DNA of 53,546 bases from an uncultured Collinsella sp. (GTDB lineage Bacteria; Actinomycetota; Coriobacteriia; Coriobacteriales; Coriobacteriaceae). The DNA lies in the NCBI GenBank assembly GCA_958438955.1, contig CAUBTS010000001.1, positions 1 to 53,546 of the forward strand. Direction: 5' to 3'. The notes beneath the pieces were generated by a model, which was not told the origin of the DNA, ran no database searches, and was given only the letters and a program-made list of their open reading frames with translations. The number at the start of each line of letters is the position of its first letter. Positions within the stretch are counted from its first letter, which is position 1. The position numbers and the translations under genes are program-made. Positions 7,994 to 27,180 of this stretch are shown one piece after another.

Positions 7994-10216
7994 CTACACG
8001 ATTTGATTCACGTGCGTCTCGTCGTCGAACTTGGCGGTGCCGGGCTCAACGTCCTGGGGAGCGGCGGCATCGACCAGAGCTTGCTTAAGCTCGGTGTACT
8101 GACGCTCGACCTCGCCCTCGGCCCAGACCTGGTCGGCGATAGCGTCGACCTGGCAGGCGGAGAACTTGTCCTCGGGCGTATGCGAGACCGGGTCAACCTT
8201 GTGAATGGTCAGCTCGTTGCACTTGCCGATCCACCACTGGTAGGTCATATAGACCGTGCCCTTGTTGATGCGATCGCTCACGTCGGCGCGGCTGTATACC
8301 TGGCCGCGGCGGCTGTGAATCGAGACGATGTCGCCGTTCTTGATGCCGCGCGCCTCGGCGTCCGCGGGATTCATGCGGACAAAGCCGGGCTCGTCGGCAA
8401 GCAGCGCCAGCGTCTTGCAGTTGCCGGTCATCGAGCGGCAGCTGTAGTGGCCGACCTCGCGGACGGTGCACAGGATGAGCGGGTACTCATCGTCGGGAAG
8501 CTCGGAGGGCGCCTCCCAGTCGTGCGCCATCAGGTTGGCGCGGCCGTCCTTGGTGGTGAACTTGCCACCAGCGAACATGTCGGGCGTACCGTGGTCGTTC
8601 ACATCGGTGCTCTTGACGGGCCACTGGGCGTAGCCGCCCTCGGGAGCCATCTTCTCGTAGGTCGCGCCCACAAAGTTGGGGCACAGGCTAATGCACTCGT
8701 TCCAGATCTGCTCGGTGTTGTCGTAGTGCATGGGGTAACCCATACGCGTGGACAGGTCCGCGAAGATCTCCCAGTCGTGACGGCACTCGCCCTTGGGCGG
8801 AACGGCCGCGTCAAAGTGCTGGAAGCTACGGTCGGATGCGGTAAAGACACCCTCGTGCTCGCCCCAAGAGGTAGCGGGCAGGATGACGTCGGCGAGCATG
8901 GTCGTCTGCGTCATAAAGATGTCCTGGCAAATGAACAGATCCAGCTCGGAGAGCGTCTTGCGCATACCGGCCGAATCGGGCTCGGTCTGCACCGGGTCCT
9001 CGCCGTAGTTGTAGAAGCAGTGCACCTTGCCCTCGTCGACCAGGTGGCCCAGGTCGGTGAGCTTATAGCCCTCCTCGAGCGGGAGCTTTTCCTCGGGCAC
9101 GCCCCAAGCCTTGGCAAACTTGGCACGCACTGCCGGGTCGGTGACCTTTTGGTAGCCAGGGTACAGGTTGGGCAGCATGCCCATATCGCAGGAGCCCTGG
9201 ACGTTATTCTGACCGCGCACGGGCGCGAGGCCAGAATTGGGTTTGCCGATCTGGCCGGCAACGCAGGCGATGGAGGCGATGGTGTGCACCGTCTTCAGGT
9301 TCTGCTTCTGCTGGCATACGCCCATACCCCAGCCAATGATGGCAGAGGGCTTCGCCGTGGCGTACATCTCGGCAGCTTGGTGGATCAACGCGGGCTCGAC
9401 ACCCGTGATGTCCTGTACGGATTCGGGAGTGTAGTTCTTGATGGTCTCCCACCATTCGTCAAAGCCGTTCGTGTGCTCGGCGACGAATTCCTTGTCGTAG
9501 AGGCCATCGTTGACCAAGCAGTTGGCAAAGGCGTTGAGGAACGCAACGTTGCAACCGTTCTTGATCGGAAGGTAGAGATCGGCGATACGCGCGGTTTCGA
9601 TATGGCGCGGGTCGGCGACGATGATCTTGCAACCCTTTTCTTTGGCTCGCACGATACGCCTTGCGACGATGGGGTGCGAATCGGCAGGGTTATAGCCGAA
9701 GAGGAAAATGCAGCCCGCATCCTCCATACCGGGGATGGAGCATGACATGCAACCTGAACCAACCGTGTCCATCAGACCGAGGACAGTAGGGCCGTGTCAA
9801 GTACGGGCGCAGTTGTCCACGCTGTGGGTGCCGATGCACGCACGCGTAAACTTCTGCATGACGTAGTTCGCCTCATTGCCGCCGCCTCGCGAAGAGCCGG
9901 TGGTCATGACAGCGTTAGGACCATATTCGTCAATTATGGCCTGCATCTTAGATGCGGTGAAATCCAGTGCCTCGTCCCAGCTTACGCGCTCAAGATCCGC
10001 GCCCTTGGTGCGGCGGATCATCGGGTGCAGTACGCGGGGAGTCAAGATCTTGGTGTCGTTGATGAAGTCGTAGCCGCTCATGCCCTTAAGGCACAGCTCG
10101 CTCTGGTTGGTGATGCCGTTGAGCGGTTCGGTACCCACGACCTGGCCGTTTTGGACCAAGAGGTTAAACTGGCAACCGGCGCCGCAGTACGGGCAAATCA
10201 CTTTATGCTTCTCCAT
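7994..10216 (-). CDS. fdhF: Selenocysteine-containing formate dehydrogenase H, catalytic subunit (about 740 aa, Sec at codon 140)
   Basis: Track ORFs 9797-10267 and 7994-9772 are one frame joined by TGA at 9797-9799 in VDNCART-U-HGPTV; N-terminal CPYCGAGC...LCLKG; RGQNNVQGSCDMG; ATG 10216 follows AGGAAGGAGG. Confidence 0.95.
9766..9799 (-). promoter_or_regulatory. Bacterial SECIS element of fdhF
   Basis: UGA + 11 nt, then UGUCCUC-GGUCU-GA(U)GGACA hairpin with GGUC in the apical loop, resembling the E. coli fdhF SECIS. Confidence 0.8.
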
Positions 10217-17241: not shown

Positions 17242-18291
17242 TTAACGGACAACGTGGACGGCAGGACCGTCCGGCACCGGCTCGCACACGCGGCCGATTG
17301 TGGCGGCAACACGCCCCTCGGCATGCAGACGGCACGCAAGCTCATCCACATCGGCAGCAGGCGCCGCGATAAGCAGGCCACCAGACGTCTGTGGATCGTA
17401 CAGCGCGTCGAGCATACCTGGCTCCAGGTCCTCGTCGGCAGCCACGCGCGGGCCAAAGAAGTCCTGGTTGCGATAGGAGCCCGCGGGGATAATGCCCAGA
17501 CGCGCCATGTCGAGCACCTGATCAAAGAGTGGCACCGCTCCCGAGGCAAGCTCAACCTGCACGCCCGAGCCCTCGGCCATCTCGCACGCATGCCCGATCA
17601 GACCAAAGCCCGTAATGTCGGTGCAGCCGTGAAGCTCAAGTCCCTCGGCCAGACGAATCGGCGCCTCGTTGAGGGTGCACATCGAGTCAAACATGACTGC
17701 GGCCTCGTCTTGCTCGATGAGCTCGCCCTTAATGGCCGTGGTGATGATGCCCGAGCCGATCGCCTTGGTCAGCAGCAGAACATCGCCCACGCGTGCGCCG
17801 CTGTTGGCGAGCATGCGGTCGAGCGCGACAAAACCACTCACGGACAGGCCGTACTTGGGCTCGTCATCGTTGATGGTATGGCCGCCCGCGATGGAGCAAC
17901 CCGCCTCGACGCACTTGTCGGCGCCGCCCGCCAGAATCTGGCCGGCGACCTCGATGCCCAGGCAGCTCGGGATGCACAGCAAGTTCATGGCATGGCTCGG
18001 CCGCCCGCCCATGGCGTAGATGTCCGACAGCGAGTTGGCCGCGGCGATCTGGCCAAACAGGAACGGGTCGTCGACCATCGGCGGGAAGAAGTCGATGGAC
18101 TGCACGAGACCAAGGTTCTCCCCTACGCGGAAGACGCTCGCATCGTCGGAGGTATCGAACCCCACGAGCAAGTTGTCGTTATGCACATTGGGTAAATCGC
18201 CCAGGACCTGGGCGAGGGCTCCGGGGGCCAACTTAGCGGCTCAACCGCTCGCGGCCGTCATGGACGTGAGCCTCATGGTGTCCTTAGCCAT
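17242..18291 (-). CDS. selD: Selenide, water dikinase with selenocysteine at codon 17
   Basis: MAKDTMRLTSMTAASG-TGA(18241-18243)-AAKLAPG is in frame with track ORF 17242-18231; DDASV, DFFPPMVDDP, GGHT, TDITGFGL, DPQTSGGLL; hairpin UCGCCCAG-GUC-CUGGGCGA at 18197-18215. Confidence 0.93.
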
Positions 18292-19501
18292 ACGAACCCC
18301 CTTCCAACAAATTAACGACTTTAAGTATACGCCCCAGGCACGCTTCCCAAGAGACCGCCGACGGCTCGAACGTCGAAGGCGGAGCCGCAAGCGCCTGCGC
18401 GATAGCATCTGCCAGTGCGCGCTCAAACAACGGAAGGTCGGCCGCCACGGGCGTGTCGACATCCGTCATACGCGGCGACGCCACCCACGTCACGGGAGCA
18501 CCGGGAAGCATCGCCTCCATCCAGGGACGAACGCCGGGCAAATCGGTCGCCACAACTTTGCAGCCGCACGCGAGGGCCTCGATCGTCACGAGCGGCAAAC
18601 CTTCGTAAAACGAAGGCAGCACAAAGACGTCGGAACTGCGGTAGGCACGCACGAGTTCATCGCTATCCAAGCGCCCCGCCAGCGTCACCGGCACATCCGA
18701 GGCCGCGGTCAAGCGCTCGATACGCGCGTACTCGGCATCGTCCCCGCGGCCGCCCACAAGTACCAAGCCAGATGAGCGGACGCCATCGTCAATCGGCAAT
18801 GACACAGCTCGAACCAGCGACTCGACGCCCTTTTTAAAGCAAATCTTGCCCACGTACACAAGCGATCCCGGCTGCCTCGCCACGCTTGCGTCGCGGCAGA
18901 AGACGCGATGGTCGTAGCCCGTCCCAATCACGTGGATGCGATCGGCATCGACGCCGCACACCAGGCCAATCTGCTCAGCCTGCTCAGCGTGGAGCGCAAA
19001 GACGGCATCGAGCCGACGAACCGCACTTACGATGCGATCGCGCTCGAGCGCATGCGAACGCAGCTGGCGCAGGTCGGTCGAATGGCACACGGCAACAACC
19101 GGCACGCCCCGGACGCACTCGCGCGCCAATGCGGTCACAAGATACAGGTGATGGCAGAGCACCAGATCGGGCCGAAACTCAGCCACCGCCCGATCGATTG
19201 CAGCAGCAAATGCCCGCTCAAATGCCTTGAGCATCGAAGGCGTCAGGTCACGATAGCGCGTGGAGGGATAGGGCATGACATCGGACATACCGCAGATGGG
19301 AAACGGCAGCTCGGGCGACTCGAACGGTACGGCAAACACGGCAGCACGCCGGTCCAGCTCGCCTTGGGTATCACCCGGTGCCGCGCCGCAAAGCACGGCG
19401 GCGCGATGCCCCGTCTCGATCTGTTCGCGTACGAGCGCGGCAAGGTAGGTGCCGCTGCCGGTGCTATCTGGTTTTTGCGCCGAGATATTGAGGATGCGCA
19501 T
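18284..19501 (-). CDS. Glycosyltransferase family 4 (GT-B) protein
   Basis: MRILNISAQKPDSTGSG, YVGKICFKKG, FVLPSFYEGLPLVTIEALACG (EX7E motif); stop overlaps the selD start. Confidence 0.88.
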   Translation of the reverse strand: MRILNISAQKPDSTGSGTYLAALVREQIETGHRAAVLCGAAPGDTQGELDRRAAVFAVPFESPELPFPICGMSDVMPYPSTRYRDLTPSMLKAFERAFAAAIDRAVAEFRPDLVLCHHLYLVTALARECVRGVPVVAVCHSTDLRQLRSHALERDRIVSAVRRLDAVFALHAEQAEQIGLVCGVDADRIHVIGTGYDHRVFCRDASVARQPGSLVYVGKICFKKGVESLVRAVSLPIDDGVRSSGLVLVGGRGDDAEYARIERLTAASDVPVTLAGRLDSDELVRAYRSSDVFVLPSFYEGLPLVTIEALACGCKVVATDLPGVRPWMEAMLPGAPVTWVASPRMTDVDTPVAADLPLFERALADAIAQALAAPPSTFEPSAVSWEACLGRILKVVNLLEGGSYG

Positions 19502-19515
19502 GTCGCGGTACACCC

Positions 19516-21753: not shown

Positions 21754-23037
21754 CTAAATGGTTTCCAAGAAAGCCTCAATCCTGGTTTGCAGCTGGCCTG
21801 CGTCCTCGCCGGCGTAGTCGGTGGTGATATGCATAAACGGAATGCCCGCCTCCTCGGCGGCCTTCTCCACGGCAAACGACTCCATCTCGTAGAGCGTGCA
21901 GAACTGCAGGGCCACGTCGACGATGCCGTCGGCATGCAGGTCCTTGGCCATCTGGACAATGTCCTTCATACGCTGGTCGTTGGGCGTAAAGACAGCACAG
22001 TTGATCTTAAAGTAGCGCTCGGCGATGGCATCAAGCATCTCGTCGACCGTCTCGCCGGACTCGTCGACCAGGTCCTTGTAGTAGCGCGAGCCCGTGCAGG
22101 ACTCCTCGCCCACCACGACGCCGCCGGCCTTCTCGATGAGGTTGAAAAGCTTCCAGTTGGGCACAGCCATGGGCGTACCGGTGTACAGGATGCGCTTGGT
22201 CCCCTTGGGTGCCACGCCCTCGCCGGCCTCGACACGTTGCTCGCACTCAGCCGCCATATCATTAATGGCGCCGGTCAGACGCGGCGTGTCGTCCATAAAG
22301 GCGGCCTGAACGGTCAGCAGGCTGTCCAGACCGCTGATGGGCGCTGGGTCGGCAGTGCGCGTGGCAGCGAGGCGCTGCAGGGCGCGACGCTTCTCATTGA
22401 CGGCGTGGATGGCGGCCTTCAGACGCTCAGGCGTAATCGTGACGCCGCACTCTTCCTCGATCTTGGCGGCGAGCTTCTTGACTTCGGCCTTCCAGGTCAC
22501 GAGCGTCGACTCGTCGTGCACGTTGGGAATATCCATGACGTACATGTTCTTTTGCGTGGCAAAGAACTCGTAGGCTTTCTTCTTACCGTCGCAGGTGTTC
22601 TCGCCTACCACCAGGTCACTCGACTCAATGTAGGGGCAGACCTCGCCCAGCTTAAAGCCGGCAAAGCTCTTGATAAGCGGGCAGGTGTTGCGCGGCAGGT
22701 GCTCCTCGACCTTATCGGTTGCCCAATCGGCACCCGAGCACAGGCCAACGGGAATGCCGTCACAGGCAAGCACGATCTCCTCGGACACGTACACGCAGAA
22801 CGAGCCGACGATCTTGGTGGCCTCGCCGGCCTCCTTCTTGTCGAGCATCTCCTTAATGCGGCCGCTATGAATGTTGGTGGCCACAAAGTCCAGGTAGGAC
22901 GTGGACTTGGGACGGTTGTTCTGCGACAGGAACATGTCCCCGTACATCTGGCCCACGGCGCCCAGCAGCATATCGTGGTCGGCAAGATTCATGCCGAGGC
23001 TCTCCCACATCGGATGGAAATCGAATTCTTCAGCCAT
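21754..23037 (-). CDS. Double-cubane-cluster reductase (DCCP-like), second paralog
   Basis: [56 protein letters not shown]. Confidence 0.88.
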
Positions 23038-23154
23038 GACGGTTCCCCTCTCGAACCAAAAACGGATTACAGCGGTATCGATGCACGACGGACGGCGATT
23101 GCCCGGCCGTGCTCAAACCCGGAATTTTAGGGAACCTGCTTTGCGGTCGATTAT

Positions 23155-23265
23155 TTAGTTGTGCGTCGTCTCTCCCGGAGCCGTGAACATACCTGCTCAT
23201 ATGCGACTCCGAACCATATAGAGGGCGCGCGCGGCAACGCGACGCGAATATGTCTTCTGCGGCAT
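23155..23265 (-). CDS. Putative leader peptide with an in-frame UGA (22 aa, or 36 aa if Sec is inserted)
   Basis: AAAGGAGGG SD, then MPQKTYSRRVAARALYMVRSRI-TGA(23197-23199)-AGMFTAPGETTHN-TAA. Confidence 0.5.
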
Positions 23266-23478
23266 CGGCGCGCCCTCCTTTTCTCGTCGAAGATAACTAT
23301 ATCAACGGTCGTCGTCCAAACGAACACCGCCGACACGCGTACGACAGCGACAGACACCGTCGTTTAATAATTAATTATCTTGTTTGATAAGGTTTTGTCA
23401 TCAATCATTCGGCGAACGGTAGGCCTAAAAGCGATACGGCGGCCGAAGACTGTATCCCCGACCGCATCGCACACCAAA

Positions 23479-24549
23479 CTACCGACAAACCAGGTGAATC
23501 CTGCTCGCATCGAAATGCATGCGCAAGGTCTCCCCCGCTTGCGGCAGCTCCTCCACAGGCACACTCACCTTGTTGACCTTCCACTGCAGGCGCGTCGGCG
23601 CATCGGCACGCGGCACATCCAGTAGCACCAAGCGCTCAAAACGCGAATCGCTCACGCGGGCCACGTGCAGATCGTAGCTGTTGCGACCACGCTCGGCACG
23701 ATTGTCCACATGGAAGTAGCTCGCGCGAATGCCTAGGTGCGCCACGTTATCGGGCACCTCGCGACCAACATTGAAGGTCATGCCCCAGTCCAGGGCTTCA
23801 ACTTCCCGAGGCCCCGTTTTGCGCGCGCGGCTCGTGTTCTTGCAGCCCGTCAGGCGCAGCGCGGCCAGGGTTTGCGGCCGGCGAACCACGTCCTCCACAG
23901 AGCCAATCTCCTCAACATGCCCGTTATGCATCACGCAGATGCGCTCGCACAGACGGCATGCCTCATCAATATCGTGGCTCACGTAGAGTACGGTACGATT
24001 GCAGACGTCGAACAGGTCGAGCATGTTTTGCTCAAGCGCGCTCTTCAGATACGCGTCGAGCGCACTCATGGGCTCATCGAACATAAAGATGCCCGGGTGC
24101 GCCGCTACCATGCGGGCGAGCGCCACGCGCTGCTGCTGTCCGCCTGAGAGGCGTGCGGGATAGCGATCGGCAAAGTCGGCCAGGCCAAAAATGCCCAGGT
24201 AGCGCTCAGCAAGCTTTTTGCGTGCCGCGGCGTCGCCCGCATCTTCAACGCCGGCGCACACATTATCGGCAACCGTCATATTGGGGAACAGCTGATAGTT
24301 TTGGAACAGCAAGGCGCACTTGCGCTCCTGGGGCGACAGGTTAATACCCGCGGCCGAATCAAAGAAAGTCACGCCGTTGACGACGATCTTGCCCTCGTCG
24401 GGCGTCTCAACGCCGGCGATGCAGCGCAAGGTACAGCTCTTGCCGCATCCGGAGGCACCGAGCAGCGCCACGCACTCCTCGCCGGCCTCAAGCTGAATGT
24501 CGAGCGTAAAGCCGGGATAGCGCTTTTTGATATCCAGAACGAGCGACAT
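23479..24549 (-). CDS. modC: Molybdate ABC transporter ATPase
   Basis: GASGCGKS, LSGGQQQRVALAR, DEPMSALD; downstream of modAB. Confidence 0.88.
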   Translation of the reverse strand: MSLVLDIKKRYPGFTLDIQLEAGEECVALLGASGCGKSCTLRCIAGVETPDEGKIVVNGVTFFDSAAGINLSPQERKCALLFQNYQLFPNMTVADNVCAGVEDAGDAAARKKLAERYLGIFGLADFADRYPARLSGGQQQRVALARMVAAHPGIFMFDEPMSALDAYLKSALEQNMLDLFDVCNRTVLYVSHDIDEACRLCERICVMHNGHVEEIGSVEDVVRRPQTLAALRLTGCKNTSRARKTGPREVEALDWGMTFNVGREVPDNVAHLGIRASYFHVDNRAERGRNSYDLHVARVSDSRFERLVLLDVPRADAPTRLQWKVNKVSVPVEELPQAGETLRMHFDASRIHLVCR

Positions 24550-24552
24550 GGC

Positions 24553-26034
24553 TTATCGACCTCCCTTCGCAACCGCGTCGTCGCGCATAAGCTCGGCCAA
24601 CGCCTCGCGGTCGATGCGCAGGGCATCGCCACCAACGGGGTCGAGCGAATCGCCCTGGCCGGCGAGCTCCTTGGTCTGCTTGCGCTCCGCACGCGAAAGG
24701 CCCCGCTCACGGTACTTTTGCGAGTGCGCCGTATACATGTTGATGAACAGGATGACCAGGAAGCTAAAGACGATTACGACGACGACCCAAAAGAGCGCCA
24801 CCGACGTATTGCCGCCCATCCATTCAAAGTAGATGGAGATGGGAATGGTCTGCGTAATGCCGGCATAGTTGCCCGCAAAGAACAGCGTGCAGCCAAACTC
24901 GCCCATAGCGCGGGCAAAGGCGAGCACCGTGCCGGCGGCGATAGACGGCCAGCCGAGGGGCATCATGAGTTTGGCAAAGATGCGACGCTCAGACCAGCCC
25001 AGCGTGCGCGCGGCGTCGAGCATCTGCGTGTCGAGGCTCTCGAAGGCGCCGAGTGCCGTACGATAGACGAGCGGGAACGACACCACCACGGCAGAGATCA
25101 CCGCCGCCGGCCACGTAAAGACAATCGAGATGCCGTGTGCGATCAGCCACTGCCCCACCCCGGTCGAGCGACCGAACAGCATAAGCAGCAAAAAGCCGCA
25201 GACCGTGGGCGGCAGCACCATGGGAATGGTAAAGACTGAATCGAGCAGGCCCTTCACGCGGCTCGTGGTGCCCATGGTCTTCCACGCGGCAAACAAGCCC
25301 AGCGCAAACGCGATCACCAGGGCAAGACTGCTTGTTTTGATAGACACCCAAAACGGACGGTAGTCGATGCCGCCAAAAAACGTCTGGGCGCGTTCTGCCA
25401 GCGAAGGCGGCTCCGTCGTCGAGACGCTCGCATACGGCACCAGGGCGGCGTTATCGCTCCACAGAGCGCCGTCACCCAGGTTAAGCTCAGTGTTTGCGGC
25501 GTCCGCGGCGTTCACGACGGTGTAGTATTCGCCGTCGCCGCCCTTTACCTTAAACTGATAGCGGTAATCGCCCTGTACCAGCGTATTGTCCGAGGTGAAC
25601 ACCCAATCGAGCTTGGAATCCTCCAGCAGCGCGCCTCCCATGGAGTGGGACTTATCGAGCCCCGCGAGCATCTTCTTGAGCGCCTTTTGATCGGAGAAGC
25701 TCGCAATGTTAAGGCCCGCCTCCTTGGCGGCGTGTGCATCGACCCATACCACGATGTTCGTAGGCGTGGTCACCGTTACGAGCGTCGTCTTTTTGTAGAT
25801 GGGAAAACGATAGCCCTCGGGCTGGTCGGCAAACGAGCGGGCCGTTCCTTTTGCGTTGCGCTCAAAAGCGTTGAGGCCAAAATCAACGCCATCGAGAAGT
25901 GCGGAGTCCTCGGTCGCCTGACGCCCATCGGCGGTGGCAAAAAGTGCCTCGGCTCGAGCAACCCCGGGCAGCACCGTCAGCGCGCAGACAACAGCCGCCA
26001 ACGCGGCGAGCAGGCGAATCGTTTTCCTTGACAC
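24553..26034 (-). CDS. modB: Molybdate ABC permease with a long N-terminal extracytoplasmic extension
   Basis: C-terminal half has PMVLPPTVCG, LDAARTLG, FARAMGEFG; N-terminal signal peptide plus soluble domain; GTG 26034 after GAGGAG. Confidence 0.85.
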   Translation of the reverse strand: MSRKTIRLLAALAAVVCALTVLPGVARAEALFATADGRQATEDSALLDGVDFGLNAFERNAKGTARSFADQPEGYRFPIYKKTTLVTVTTPTNIVVWVDAHAAKEAGLNIASFSDQKALKKMLAGLDKSHSMGGALLEDSKLDWVFTSDNTLVQGDYRYQFKVKGGDGEYYTVVNAADAANTELNLGDGALWSDNAALVPYASVSTTEPPSLAERAQTFFGGIDYRPFWVSIKTSSLALVIAFALGLFAAWKTMGTTSRVKGLLDSVFTIPMVLPPTVCGFLLLMLFGRSTGVGQWLIAHGISIVFTWPAAVISAVVVSFPLVYRTALGAFESLDTQMLDAARTLGWSERRIFAKLMMPLGWPSIAAGTVLAFARAMGEFGCTLFFAGNYAGITQTIPISIYFEWMGGNTSVALFWVVVVIVFSFLVILFINMYTAHSQKYRERGLSRAERKQTKELAGQGDSLDPVGGDALRIDREALAELMRDDAVAKGGR

Positions 26035-26151
26035 GGGCGACTCCTCAAACACAGGGCAACGGCGCGCGGACACGCCGCTTCAATCTAAAAAGGGCGGACG
26101 ATCGCAAGAACGCCCGCCCTCAAGCATATCGTTATGTAGCTCAGCTATGCA

Positions 26152-27027
26152 CTACTCGGAAAGCTCGAAGCCGTACTTAGCCCAAATCTTCTGCGCCTTC
26201 TTGTTGGAAAGGCAGAAGTCGATGAACGCCTTTGCGTCGTCGGCATGCTCGGAGCTCTCGGCCACGGCACCCGGGTACACGATGGGCTTGTGCGAATCCT
26301 CGGGGCACACGAAGGCCTCCTCGATGCCGTCATAGCGGTAGATGTCAGAGCTATAGACAAAGCCGGCCACGCAGTCACCCGTGGACACGTAGGCGGCAGC
26401 GGTACCGACCTTGTCGGCCAGCGCGACCTTGTCGGCGATCTCGGGCGCGTACTCGCCGTCATCGCCCTCGGTGCCGGTGTAGAGGCCCACGGAGGCCAGG
26501 GCCTGGTTGGCGTACTTGCCGGCGGGGACGGTCTTGGCGTCGCCAATGGCGATCTTGCCGTCCAGGTTCGCGACGTCGGCAATGGCCTCGACCTTGGTGT
26601 CGGAGCCCTCGGCGCGAATGATCACGAGGTCGTTGACGAACATGTCCTCACGCGTGTCGGCGTCGACGAGTTCGGCGGCCTCAGCGTCGTCCATGGTGCC
26701 CTTGGAGGCCGTGATGAGCACGTCGACGGCGGCACCGGCGCGCATTTGCTCGACAAGGTCGCCAGACGCCTTAAACTGCGTGTCGGCAAACGTGGTGCCG
26801 GTCTGGTCGGTGTAGAGCTCCTGAACCTCGGGCAGGGCCTTCTCGAGCGAGTTGGCGGCAAAGACCTGCAGCTCGACAGCTTTCTTCTTAGAGGAAGACT
26901 TGGCGGAGCCGGCATCGGAACCAGCGGGCTCGGACGTCTTGTTGCCCGAGCAGCCGGCAAGGCCAAGGCCGGCGACAGCGGCAGCAGAGAGCGAGACAAA
27001 ACCGCGGCGTGAAACCATATCGAACAT
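26152..27027 (-). CDS. modA: Molybdate-binding lipoprotein
   Basis: SRRGF twin-Arg-like signal, LAGC lipobox, VFAANSL, ASGDL, VPAGKYA, GFVYSSD. Confidence 0.9.
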   Translation of the reverse strand: MFDMVSRRGFVSLSAAAVAGLGLAGCSGNKTSEPAGSDAGSAKSSSKKKAVELQVFAANSLEKALPEVQELYTDQTGTTFADTQFKASGDLVEQMRAGAAVDVLITASKGTMDDAEAAELVDADTREDMFVNDLVIIRAEGSDTKVEAIADVANLDGKIAIGDAKTVPAGKYANQALASVGLYTGTEGDDGEYAPEIADKVALADKVGTAAAYVSTGDCVAGFVYSSDIYRYDGIEEAFVCPEDSHKPIVYPGAVAESSEHADDAKAFIDFCLSNKKAQKIWAKYGFELSE

Positions 27028-27180
27028 ATTCAACCCTTTCGGACCTTGTGCCCGGGCACCCCACCGCGGGCTTTAATCTGCAATCAGATTATACTTTGTT
27101 GCGAATAATGATTGTGAGAAATTATTCTCCCCAGAGAATATAGTTTCAAGTTACCGTGCAACTTGGCGTCGCTTCGGCGG

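Follow-up and report, generated by a model that had tools for sequence, protein, structure and literature searches.

The selenium operon of an uncultured Collinsella species is preceded by a leader RNA in which the ribosome-binding site (RBS) of the first operon gene is sequestered and a short upstream open reading frame (uORF1) is conserved as a coding sequence. The operon lies on the minus strand of a 53,546-nucleotide (nt) stretch of DNA (contig CAUBTS010000001.1 of assembly GCA_958438955.1), referred to below as the window, whose positions are used throughout. The leader lies in a spacer of 440 nt that separates modC (24549-23479) from the first operon gene (23037-21754), which encodes a double-cubane-cluster anaerobic reductase of the HGD-D family (NF040772, 486 bits against a cut-off of 350; PF06050). 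The leader with its sequestered reductase RBS is the solid part of the finding, and the leader probably gates translation of the operon. A more tentative account, given somewhat less than an even chance, is that the spacer acts as a Collinsella-specific translational leader gated by translation of the 22-codon uORF1, in which the UGA would be an ordinary stop and a second, overlapping frame (ORF2) would serve as a relay. A sequence-only reading had earlier proposed a leader peptide that senses selenocysteine (Sec) at this UGA. A real translated frame, a sequestered RBS and a selD gene that itself needs Sec are what emerges from that proposal, while the Sec reading of the UGA gains little from the comparisons below.

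The comparative evidence comes from 141 full Collinsella leaders, of which 123 are unique. Because 120 loci behind these leaders were picked by exact match to the core at 23187-23165, the invariance of that segment among them holds by construction; 30 leaders found by similarity alone, and not by the core pattern, form a separate subset. uORF1 (23197-23265) comprises AUG 23265 and 21 further sense codons, 22 in all (MPQKTYSRRVAARALYMVRSRI), and ends at the UGA at 23199-23197. It is led by the Shine-Dalgarno (SD) sequence AAAGGAGGG (23273-23281), whose GGAGG core is found in 31 of 31 leaders examined (one reads GGAGGA). The letters and minus-strand positions that the sequence-only reading had given for the SD, ATG 23265, the in-frame UGA and a further in-frame UAA at 23157-23155 are all accurate. 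uORF1 is present in 141/141 full leaders. Among the unique ones it starts with ATG in 119 and with GTG in 4, an exchange that preserves a start codon; in all 123 the UGA stands at codon 23 and the in-frame UAA at codon 37.

On a tree of the 123 leaders, parsimony changes in uORF1 codons 2-22 number 14, 20 and 109 at the first, second and third codon positions (permutation p=9e-5). The corresponding counts in the 30 similarity-found leaders are 2, 7 and 31, a distribution that resembles those of modC (15, 16 and 65) and of the reductase gene (0, 2 and 13). Synonymous sites, for example in Y6, R13, L15, Y16 and S20, collect 7-25 changes each, while most first and second positions have none, which argues that the peptide itself, and not just the frame, is selected. 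Hardly any variation is seen at T5, Y6, R9, V10 or the final six residues, and the last two wobble sites before the UGA are frozen although they are unpaired. Judged by this pattern of substitution, uORF1 is genuinely translated and its peptide is under purifying selection. The frame contains one UGA only; five of its 22 codons specify arginine, with no tie to the function of the operon.

Folding of the leader was examined as a consensus of the 123 unique sequences, with conservation counted for each pair. At the 5′ end, hairpin H1 (23299-23336) consists of 11 + 3 base pairs (bp), each kept in 111-123 of 123 leaders and changing mostly on one side, from A-U to G-U. Helix H2 (23222-23276) then pairs the SD and AUG of uORF1 (23276-23259) with its codons 8-15 (23243-23222) through 15 pairs, each found in 118-123 of 123; in the free leader, the probability of being unpaired is 0.15 for this SD and 0.03 for the AUG. 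The sequence-only reading had anticipated the core of this helix, a pairing of GAGGGCGCGC (23277-23268) with 23230-23221. All ten pairs exist in the window, nine of them recur in 121-123 of the 123 leaders, and the terminal pair recurs in 6 only.

Hairpin H3 (23174-23213), which was absent from the sequence-only reading, encloses the UGA, an AUG that overlaps it and a GGAG. It comprises a lower stem of 10 bp (23213-23204 with 23183-23174), a CAUA bulge, an upper stem of 6 bp (23199-23194 with 23189-23184) and a GGUA loop (23193-23190). Its predicted stability is -20.1 kcal/mol (z-score -3.5, matched by 0.5% of shuffles), and all 16 pairs occur in 122-123 of 123 leaders, with one-sided C-G to U-G changes and none that is compensatory. 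The leader folded as a whole is less striking (z-score -1.7).

A hypervariable unpaired linker (23144-23152; 3 to 20 parsimony changes per site, and 2.44 per site in the 30-leader set) separates this region from the anti-RBS strand (23118-23143). The latter includes the anti-SD GGUUCCCY (23136-23129) and pairs with 23055-23035 through 18 pairs, each present in 121-123 of 123, in a duplex of -18.5 kcal/mol. The resulting long-range helix of about 20 bp buries the RBS of the first reductase gene (23035-23055), that is, both the SD within GAGAGGGGAACC and the AUG at 23037-23035. The pairing of GGUUCCCU (23136-23129) with GGGGAACC (23048-23041), already suspected from the sequence, has each of its pairs in 122-123 of 123 leaders, and the local GGUUC (23057-23053) that had been named beside it can indeed pair alternatively with GAACC. 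Hairpin H4 (23084-23111), inside the long-range helix, displays compensatory double changes at four pairs; 23105:23089, for instance, is U-A in 55 leaders and C-G in 52, and 23101:23093 is C-G in 59 and U-A in 57.

The leader is transcribed on the minus strand together with the operon in two raw-read RNA sequencing (RNA-seq) runs from one related strain, where read depth is 65-113 over the leader, 63-109 over the 5′ part of the gene and 36-77 deeper into it. A promoter-like site, ATGACA-16-GATAAT (23374-23401), matches at 10 of 12 positions, with 1 site found against 0.5 expected from shuffles. An inverted repeat of TTATC (23390-23386) and GATAA (23379-23375) with N6 spacing overlaps its predicted -10 element. 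Reads cover this predicted promoter, so that part of the transcription reads through from modC. In neither run is there a sharp drop, a pile-up of read ends, or a start or end that would locate a transcription start or attenuation site; the gaps at 23244-23345 and 23414-23447 are attributable to divergence from the window, since loose read ends there continue into another variant of the leader. A search of the leader for an intrinsic terminator found none. The lack of a terminator together with the lack of a sharp drop in RNA-seq makes control more likely translational than transcriptional. A GATAA...TTATC palindrome also occurs 5′ of the first reductase gene at a locus from another genus that has no leader (L033), and may be a shared transcription factor operator.

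The sequence-only reading had held that stopping at the UGA or reading through it switches access to the reductase SD. This was examined in equilibrium folds of the consensus and window sequences in which 27 nt were masked around each ribosomal P-site over codons 18-37. The anti-SD remains paired in every such frame-0 fold, with a probability of being unpaired of 0.00-0.18 at every P-site, and the SD is unchanged. As far as equilibrium folding is a guide, stopping versus read-through does not switch the structure in the manner proposed. An ermC-like refolding, in which the 5′ strand of H3 would pair with the anti-RBS strand (-16.9 versus -18.5 kcal/mol), was considered as well and rejected, as it never appears in the masked folds. 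Ribosomes in frame 0 never free the anti-SD over these codons; freeing it takes a frame that runs through 23143-23118.

Such a frame exists. ORF2 (23030-23200, 56 codons) begins at AUG 23200-23198, which overlaps the uORF1 stop as AUGA, and ends at a UGA (23032-23030) 3 nt past the reductase AUG, stopping on the reductase start (AUGGCUGA). GGAG 23210-23207 lies 6 nt 5′ of its AUG; the GGAG and the AUGA are invariant, and both are locked in H3. In every one of the 123 leaders ORF2 clears the anti-RBS strand, with a length of 40 codons or more; in 118 it stays open as far as the reductase start or further, and in 113 it ends on that start, with 56 or 57 codons. A23200 is at once the A of the overlapping AUG and the wobble base of the last sense codon of uORF1 (AUA). 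It is unpaired in H3 and synonymous for uORF1, and it has 0 changes, against 5-25 at other uORF1 wobble positions. Entry into ORF2 by frameshifting was rejected by inference from anticodon re-pairing.

These features point to the following relay. In the resting RNA, three ribosome-binding sites would be locked in series, that of uORF1 by H2, that of ORF2 by H3 and that of the reductase by the long-range helix. A ribosome translating uORF1 would melt H3 and terminate at the UGA. It could then restart one base back, at the overlapping AUG, and enter ORF2. Having crossed the anti-RBS strand, the ORF2 ribosome would stop on the reductase start and free the buried RBS. Since both the peptide and H3 are so strictly kept, some signal is presumably sensed at the stop codon or close to it.

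In ermC-type attenuation, a leader peptide is coupled to a sequestered RBS, and AUGA stop/start overlaps couple the translation of adjoining frames. The Collinsella leader shares with these systems an SD-led short leader frame, helices that bury a downstream RBS, a stop/start overlap, and an opening that would be brought about by a ribosome rather than a terminator. It differs from the ermC type in that no ribosome position in the leader frame frees the RBS by refolding, so that the second, 56-codon frame is needed, and in that the leader peptide is itself conserved.

Several observations weigh against the relay account. ORF2 has no codon periodicity (121, 84 and 137 changes by position), and alleles that would create stops within it are not depleted (3/76 observed versus 14/318 possible, Fisher p=0.56). 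Five of the 123 unique leaders truncate the frame after 40-41 codons and in another 5 its end is displaced, and after shuffling a frame of 55 codons is open in 11% of cases. A pure relay would also leave unexplained the conservation of the uORF1 peptide, the frozen 37 nt past the UGA and the in-frame UAAAU. Support for structure other than H4 consists of invariant pairs or one-sided changes, as the alignment presents them. The phylogenetic depth of the comparison is also shallow, since it spans one genus only.

The distribution of the leader bears on this last point. Within the genus, 30/36 genomes have DNA that matches the leader at 82-89% identity, compared with 0/24 genomes from other genera of the order; the leader has no second copy in its own genome. 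In a set of 185,579 species, each represented by one genome, at least 120 records contain the exact 23-nt core pattern, and the 80 matches listed are all titled Collinsella, Coriobacteriaceae or "uncultured bacterium". For 21 first-gene orthologues of greater divergence (L032-L052, 59-88% protein identity), the upstream DNA contains neither an alignable leader nor a recurrent SD-led uORF. One orthologue from the same genus (G133, 81% protein identity) has an unrelated upstream region that nevertheless contains a uORF ending in AUGA; a search of 40 genomes found no relative of this divergent leader, which makes it uninformative. On these comparisons the leader is confined to Collinsella, and the whole comparative evidence accordingly comes from a single genus.

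Whether the UGA could be read as Sec has to be judged against the selenoprotein genes of the window itself. selD (17242-18291, minus strand) is one of them. It starts at ATG 18291, has an in-frame TGA at 18243-18241 (SG-U-AAK) and continues into a 329-codon open reading frame (ORF), the part that stands alone in the ORF list, lacking the segment 5′ of the TGA. When the TGA is read through, the product matches SelD (TIGR00476) at 362 bits. The TGA is present in 47/47 unique Collinsella sequences, and about 35 nt 3′ of it lies a selenocysteine insertion sequence (SECIS) hairpin capped by GGUC, in which all changes among these sequences preserve pairing. Another is fdhF (7994-10216, minus strand), in which TGA 9799-9797 encodes Sec (CART-U-HGP). 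Of the 46 Collinsella genomes searched, 37 match the 161-nt stretch surrounding the fdhF TGA, 35 of them at 98-100% identity, and the near-identity of this SECIS stretch means that it yields no loop variants. selB and tRNA-Sec are encoded in the genome.

The candidate SECIS of the leader is a hairpin, CGGCUC[CGGGA]GAGACG (23167-23183), that starts 13 nt past the UGA and has five Watson-Crick pairs, one G.A mismatch and an invariant sequence. What the sequence-only reading had said of its presence and spacing stands: the loop starts at +23, compared with +22 in the fdhF SECIS and about +35 in that of selD. Its stability and loop bases do not bear out the comparison. The stretch from +12 to +50 after the uORF1 UGA has a folding energy of -2.8 kcal/mol. 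Among the window's 1312 TGA trinucleotides, 96% precede a stretch that folds equally well or better; on the same measure, selD reaches -16.4 (top 4%) and fdhF -8.5. The candidate hairpin is not beyond chance expectation. Like the fdhF and selD elements, the leader has an in-frame UGA followed by about 37 frozen nt, with a small hairpin whose loop position is close to that of fdhF; unlike them, it offers five pairs with a mismatch under a CGGGA loop, where they carry GGUC(U/C) on 7-8 pairs. A SECIS core shared with the first small hairpin of selD (both read GGCUCC.GGAG) was considered and rejected, since a U/C change breaks that selD pair among the 47 unique sequences. The candidate is also mutually exclusive with H3, which takes up its 5′ half, and can form only once H3 has been melted. 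The GGUA loop of H3 itself starts 6 nt after the UGA, which is too near to serve that codon.

A selenium sensor in the form that fits this anatomy is unlikely. Here, decoding of the UGA by SelB and Sec-tRNASec would decide between frame 0 and restart. With H3 melted, its freed 3′ strand would form the hairpin at 23183-23167, Sec would be inserted, and the ribosome would be released at the UAA with the RBS still shut; where insertion fails, termination and restart at the overlapping AUG would open the RBS, so that the selD operon would be on under selenium shortage. The presence of selB, tRNA-Sec and a Sec-containing selD suits this proposal, as do the invariance of the UGA and of the in-frame UAA and the loop position of the candidate hairpin. 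The frame-0 extension past the UGA (23155-23196) comprises 13 codons and ends at that UAA, which lies in a zero-change island, UAAAU (23157-23153), with variable flanks on either side. Without this UAA the next frame-0 stop would be 23115-23113, past the anti-RBS strand. Bases are frozen whatever their codon position to about +37 after the UGA, and about 37 nt after the UGA is the usual length of a bacterial SECIS.

The invariance of the UGA is less telling than it seems. The sequence-only reading had asked whether relatives replace it with UAA or UAG, and none of the 123 unique leaders does; the codon is, however, paired in H3, overlaps an AUG and sits in a fully frozen block, and any of these would explain its conservation more simply. 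No cysteine codon (UGC/UGU) replaces it in any of the 123 leaders. No coding signature by codon position was found past the UGA (9, 11 and 9 changes in the 123 leaders; 5, 4 and 3 in the 30-leader set), and codons 35-36 vary non-synonymously (H35 to Y, N or R; N36 to S). The weak hairpin, which lacks the GGUC loop of both genomic SECIS elements, would have to form transiently against an H3 of -20 kcal/mol, and the version in which the SD is refolded, as first proposed, fails in the masked folds. Rfam at gathering thresholds reports RNase P and two tRNAs only in the whole window, and at permissive thresholds it finds no SECIS in the leader, where its only hit is a chance snoRNA match (E=4.2). 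This silence says little, because the control also fails: the fdhF SECIS matches SECIS_3 at 18.9 bits, far below 63, and the selD element has no match.

There is a precedent for selenium control through translation across a SECIS, in Treponema primitia, where selenium controls fdhFSec in this way (PMC3892789). Decoding of the UGA as Sec would decide downstream expression in the Collinsella leader as well. In the Treponema case the UGA is in the coding sequence of the enzyme itself and the effect is on transcription elongation, whereas here it is in a leader and a translational effect is proposed. Selenium sensing by the leader is a possibility of low probability. More doubtful still is the specific idea that the UGA/AUG overlap within H3 is a decision point that measures Sec-insertion capacity, which would make the leader a ribosome-read selenium homeostat.

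By analogy, H3 may instead mimic a SECIS and bind SelB-GTP-Sec-tRNASec, an alternative that is rather improbable. The complex would stabilise H3 and block the ribosome sites buried there, and with them the relay, so that an ample supply of charged tRNASec would repress the operon, and the UGA would be conserved merely as part of the stem. The apex of H3, CA-GGUA-UG, resembles that of the selD SECIS, CA-GGUCC-UG, and the fdhF loop GGUCU; as in the E. coli element, a 5′ bulge lies below the apical stem. Counting both strands of the 53.5-kb window (107 kb), there are only 8 hairpins of at least six pairs with a 3-5 nt loop starting with GGU. H3 and the selD SECIS are among them, and the chance of one falling within the 440-nt spacer is about 0.03. 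The GGUA-capped H3 covers the GGAG and AUG of ORF2. The fourth loop base is, however, A and not C, and the loop is not wholly frozen (1 AGUA, 1 GGCA and 3 GGUG among 123). GGU-loop hairpins of at least five pairs number 245 in the genome, so the motif is not a rare one, and some 150 nt separate H3 from the reductase RBS, which it does not adjoin.

The model for such an operator is the SECIS-like element in the 5′ untranslated region (UTR) of E. coli selAB, which is bound by SelB-GTP-Sec-tRNASec (Thanbichler and Boeck 2002, as summarised in PMC13449736). The two leaders share a SECIS-like GGU-loop hairpin in front of selenium genes that overlaps an SD and start codon, here those of ORF2. H3 differs from the E. 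coli element in lying within a translated uORF whose stop it contains, in its distance of about 150 nt from the main RBS and in having GGUA in place of GGUC. The 5′ UTR of selA in the selA-selB-tRNA-Sec operon (L249, 6067-6100, minus strand; contig C36 of G000) can itself fold into a hairpin of 5 bp, CCUUU/AAAGG, whose loop begins with GGU. This hairpin covers the selA SD and may be a counterpart of the E. coli selAB operator.

Arrest of a nascent peptide at the UGA is likewise rather improbable. In tnaC, the ribosome is arrested at a UGA stop, and prfB is autoregulated at an in-frame UGA. A comparable mechanism would have a small molecule, possibly a selenium compound or a substrate of the reductase, hold the ribosome with H3 open, and the held ribosome would alter restart or the fate of the RNA. 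The selection on the peptide itself, which the relay leaves without a role, would be accounted for, as would the two frozen, unpaired wobble sites before the stop, and the stop is UGA, which is read by RF2 as in tnaC. As in tnaC and prfB, a UGA in a short conserved frame would be the decision point, and an SD-like GGAG lies shortly 5′ of it. The differences are that there is no recognisable arrest motif or slippery site, and that the overlapping frame is -1 and would be entered by restart, with no plausible tRNA slip. No similarity to the known arrest motifs tested was found, a ribosome masked at the UGA leaves the SD unfreed in the folds, and RNA-seq gives no sign of premature termination.

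The frozen block at 23215-23115 could also be a ligand- or protein-binding RNA, a riboswitch or operator to which uORF1 is secondary. Its roughly 100 nt of nucleotide-level invariance, wobble and unpaired bases included, and its RBS-sequestering architecture would suit such an RNA, but the block has no Rfam match, the z-score of the whole leader is poor, and the coding signature of uORF1 speaks for translation. Its restriction to one genus, with no counterpart in the 24 other-genus genomes or upstream of the 21 distant orthologues, would also be unusual for a riboswitch class, and the proposal is accordingly very unlikely. That the frame instead encodes a 36-residue selenoprotein with Sec at position 23 and a function of its own is extremely improbable, since an SD-led frame with an in-frame UGA and a conserved stop beside selenium genes has to be set against a weak SECIS candidate, the lack of amino-acid constraint past the UGA, and the lack of a cysteine homologue or an NCBIfam family match.

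The operon downstream of the leader has the content that the sequence-only reading had claimed for it, namely selD, yedF, a DUF3343 gene and a gene resembling a Sec lyase, the last of which encodes an EF2568-type cysteine desulfurase. Two double-cubane-cluster reductase genes stand at its head (NF040772, 486 and 494 bits, with the cut-off of 350) and are followed by an acyl-CoA-dehydratase-type activase, a GT4 glycosyltransferase, SelD, YedF (TIGR03527), a PF11823/DUF3343 carrier and the cysteine desulfurase. Double-cubane reductase and selenium genes occur together again in 4 of the 21 more distant orthologous loci (L032, L033, L035 and L039), and a link between them has already been published (PMC10418091). 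The glycosyltransferase gene (18284-19504, minus strand), between the activase gene and selD, is not in the orthologous operon of L033, and its product scores only 22 bits against the selenosugar synthase SenB (cut-off 300). In two genomes, represented by L028 (G017) and L089, both reductase genes have been lost but the leader and selD retained; the leader is fused there, from about window position 23084, to the activase gene at its 3′ end. Most species share 97-100% identity in the first reductase protein. The island as a whole appears much more conserved than the genus overall, for which recent spread, recombination or strong constraint are candidate causes. Directly upstream of the leader are modABC-type molybdate/tungstate transporter genes (23479-27033, minus strand), which are partly co-transcribed with it in RNA-seq. 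A 28-nt palindromic repeat, GTTACGCGGTTTGGTAAAACCGCGTAAC, occurs with variants on contigs C2, C9, C24, C29, C43, C96, C111, C118, C128 and C139 of G000 and may be a dispersed repeat or one of the clustered regularly interspaced short palindromic repeat (CRISPR) type.

A full-text literature search found no description of a Sec-sensing leader, and in the literature searched there was no selenium-responsive regulator of bacterial selenium-utilisation genes that acts through the ribosome. The closest cases found were the SelB operator of E. coli selAB (PMC13449736) and Treponema fdhFSec (PMC3892789). The Collinsella leader precedes an operon that joins SelD and selenium carriers to an ATP-driven double-cubane reductase, in a genus that is cultivable and abundant in the human gut. 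Even on a sober reading, it provides a clean case of a translated leader peptide that is strongly conserved and subject to purifying selection, with three ribosome-binding sites locked serially. If the selenium dependence is true, UGA recoding would be established as a sensing device, and the leader would offer a handle on when Collinsella turns its reductase on.

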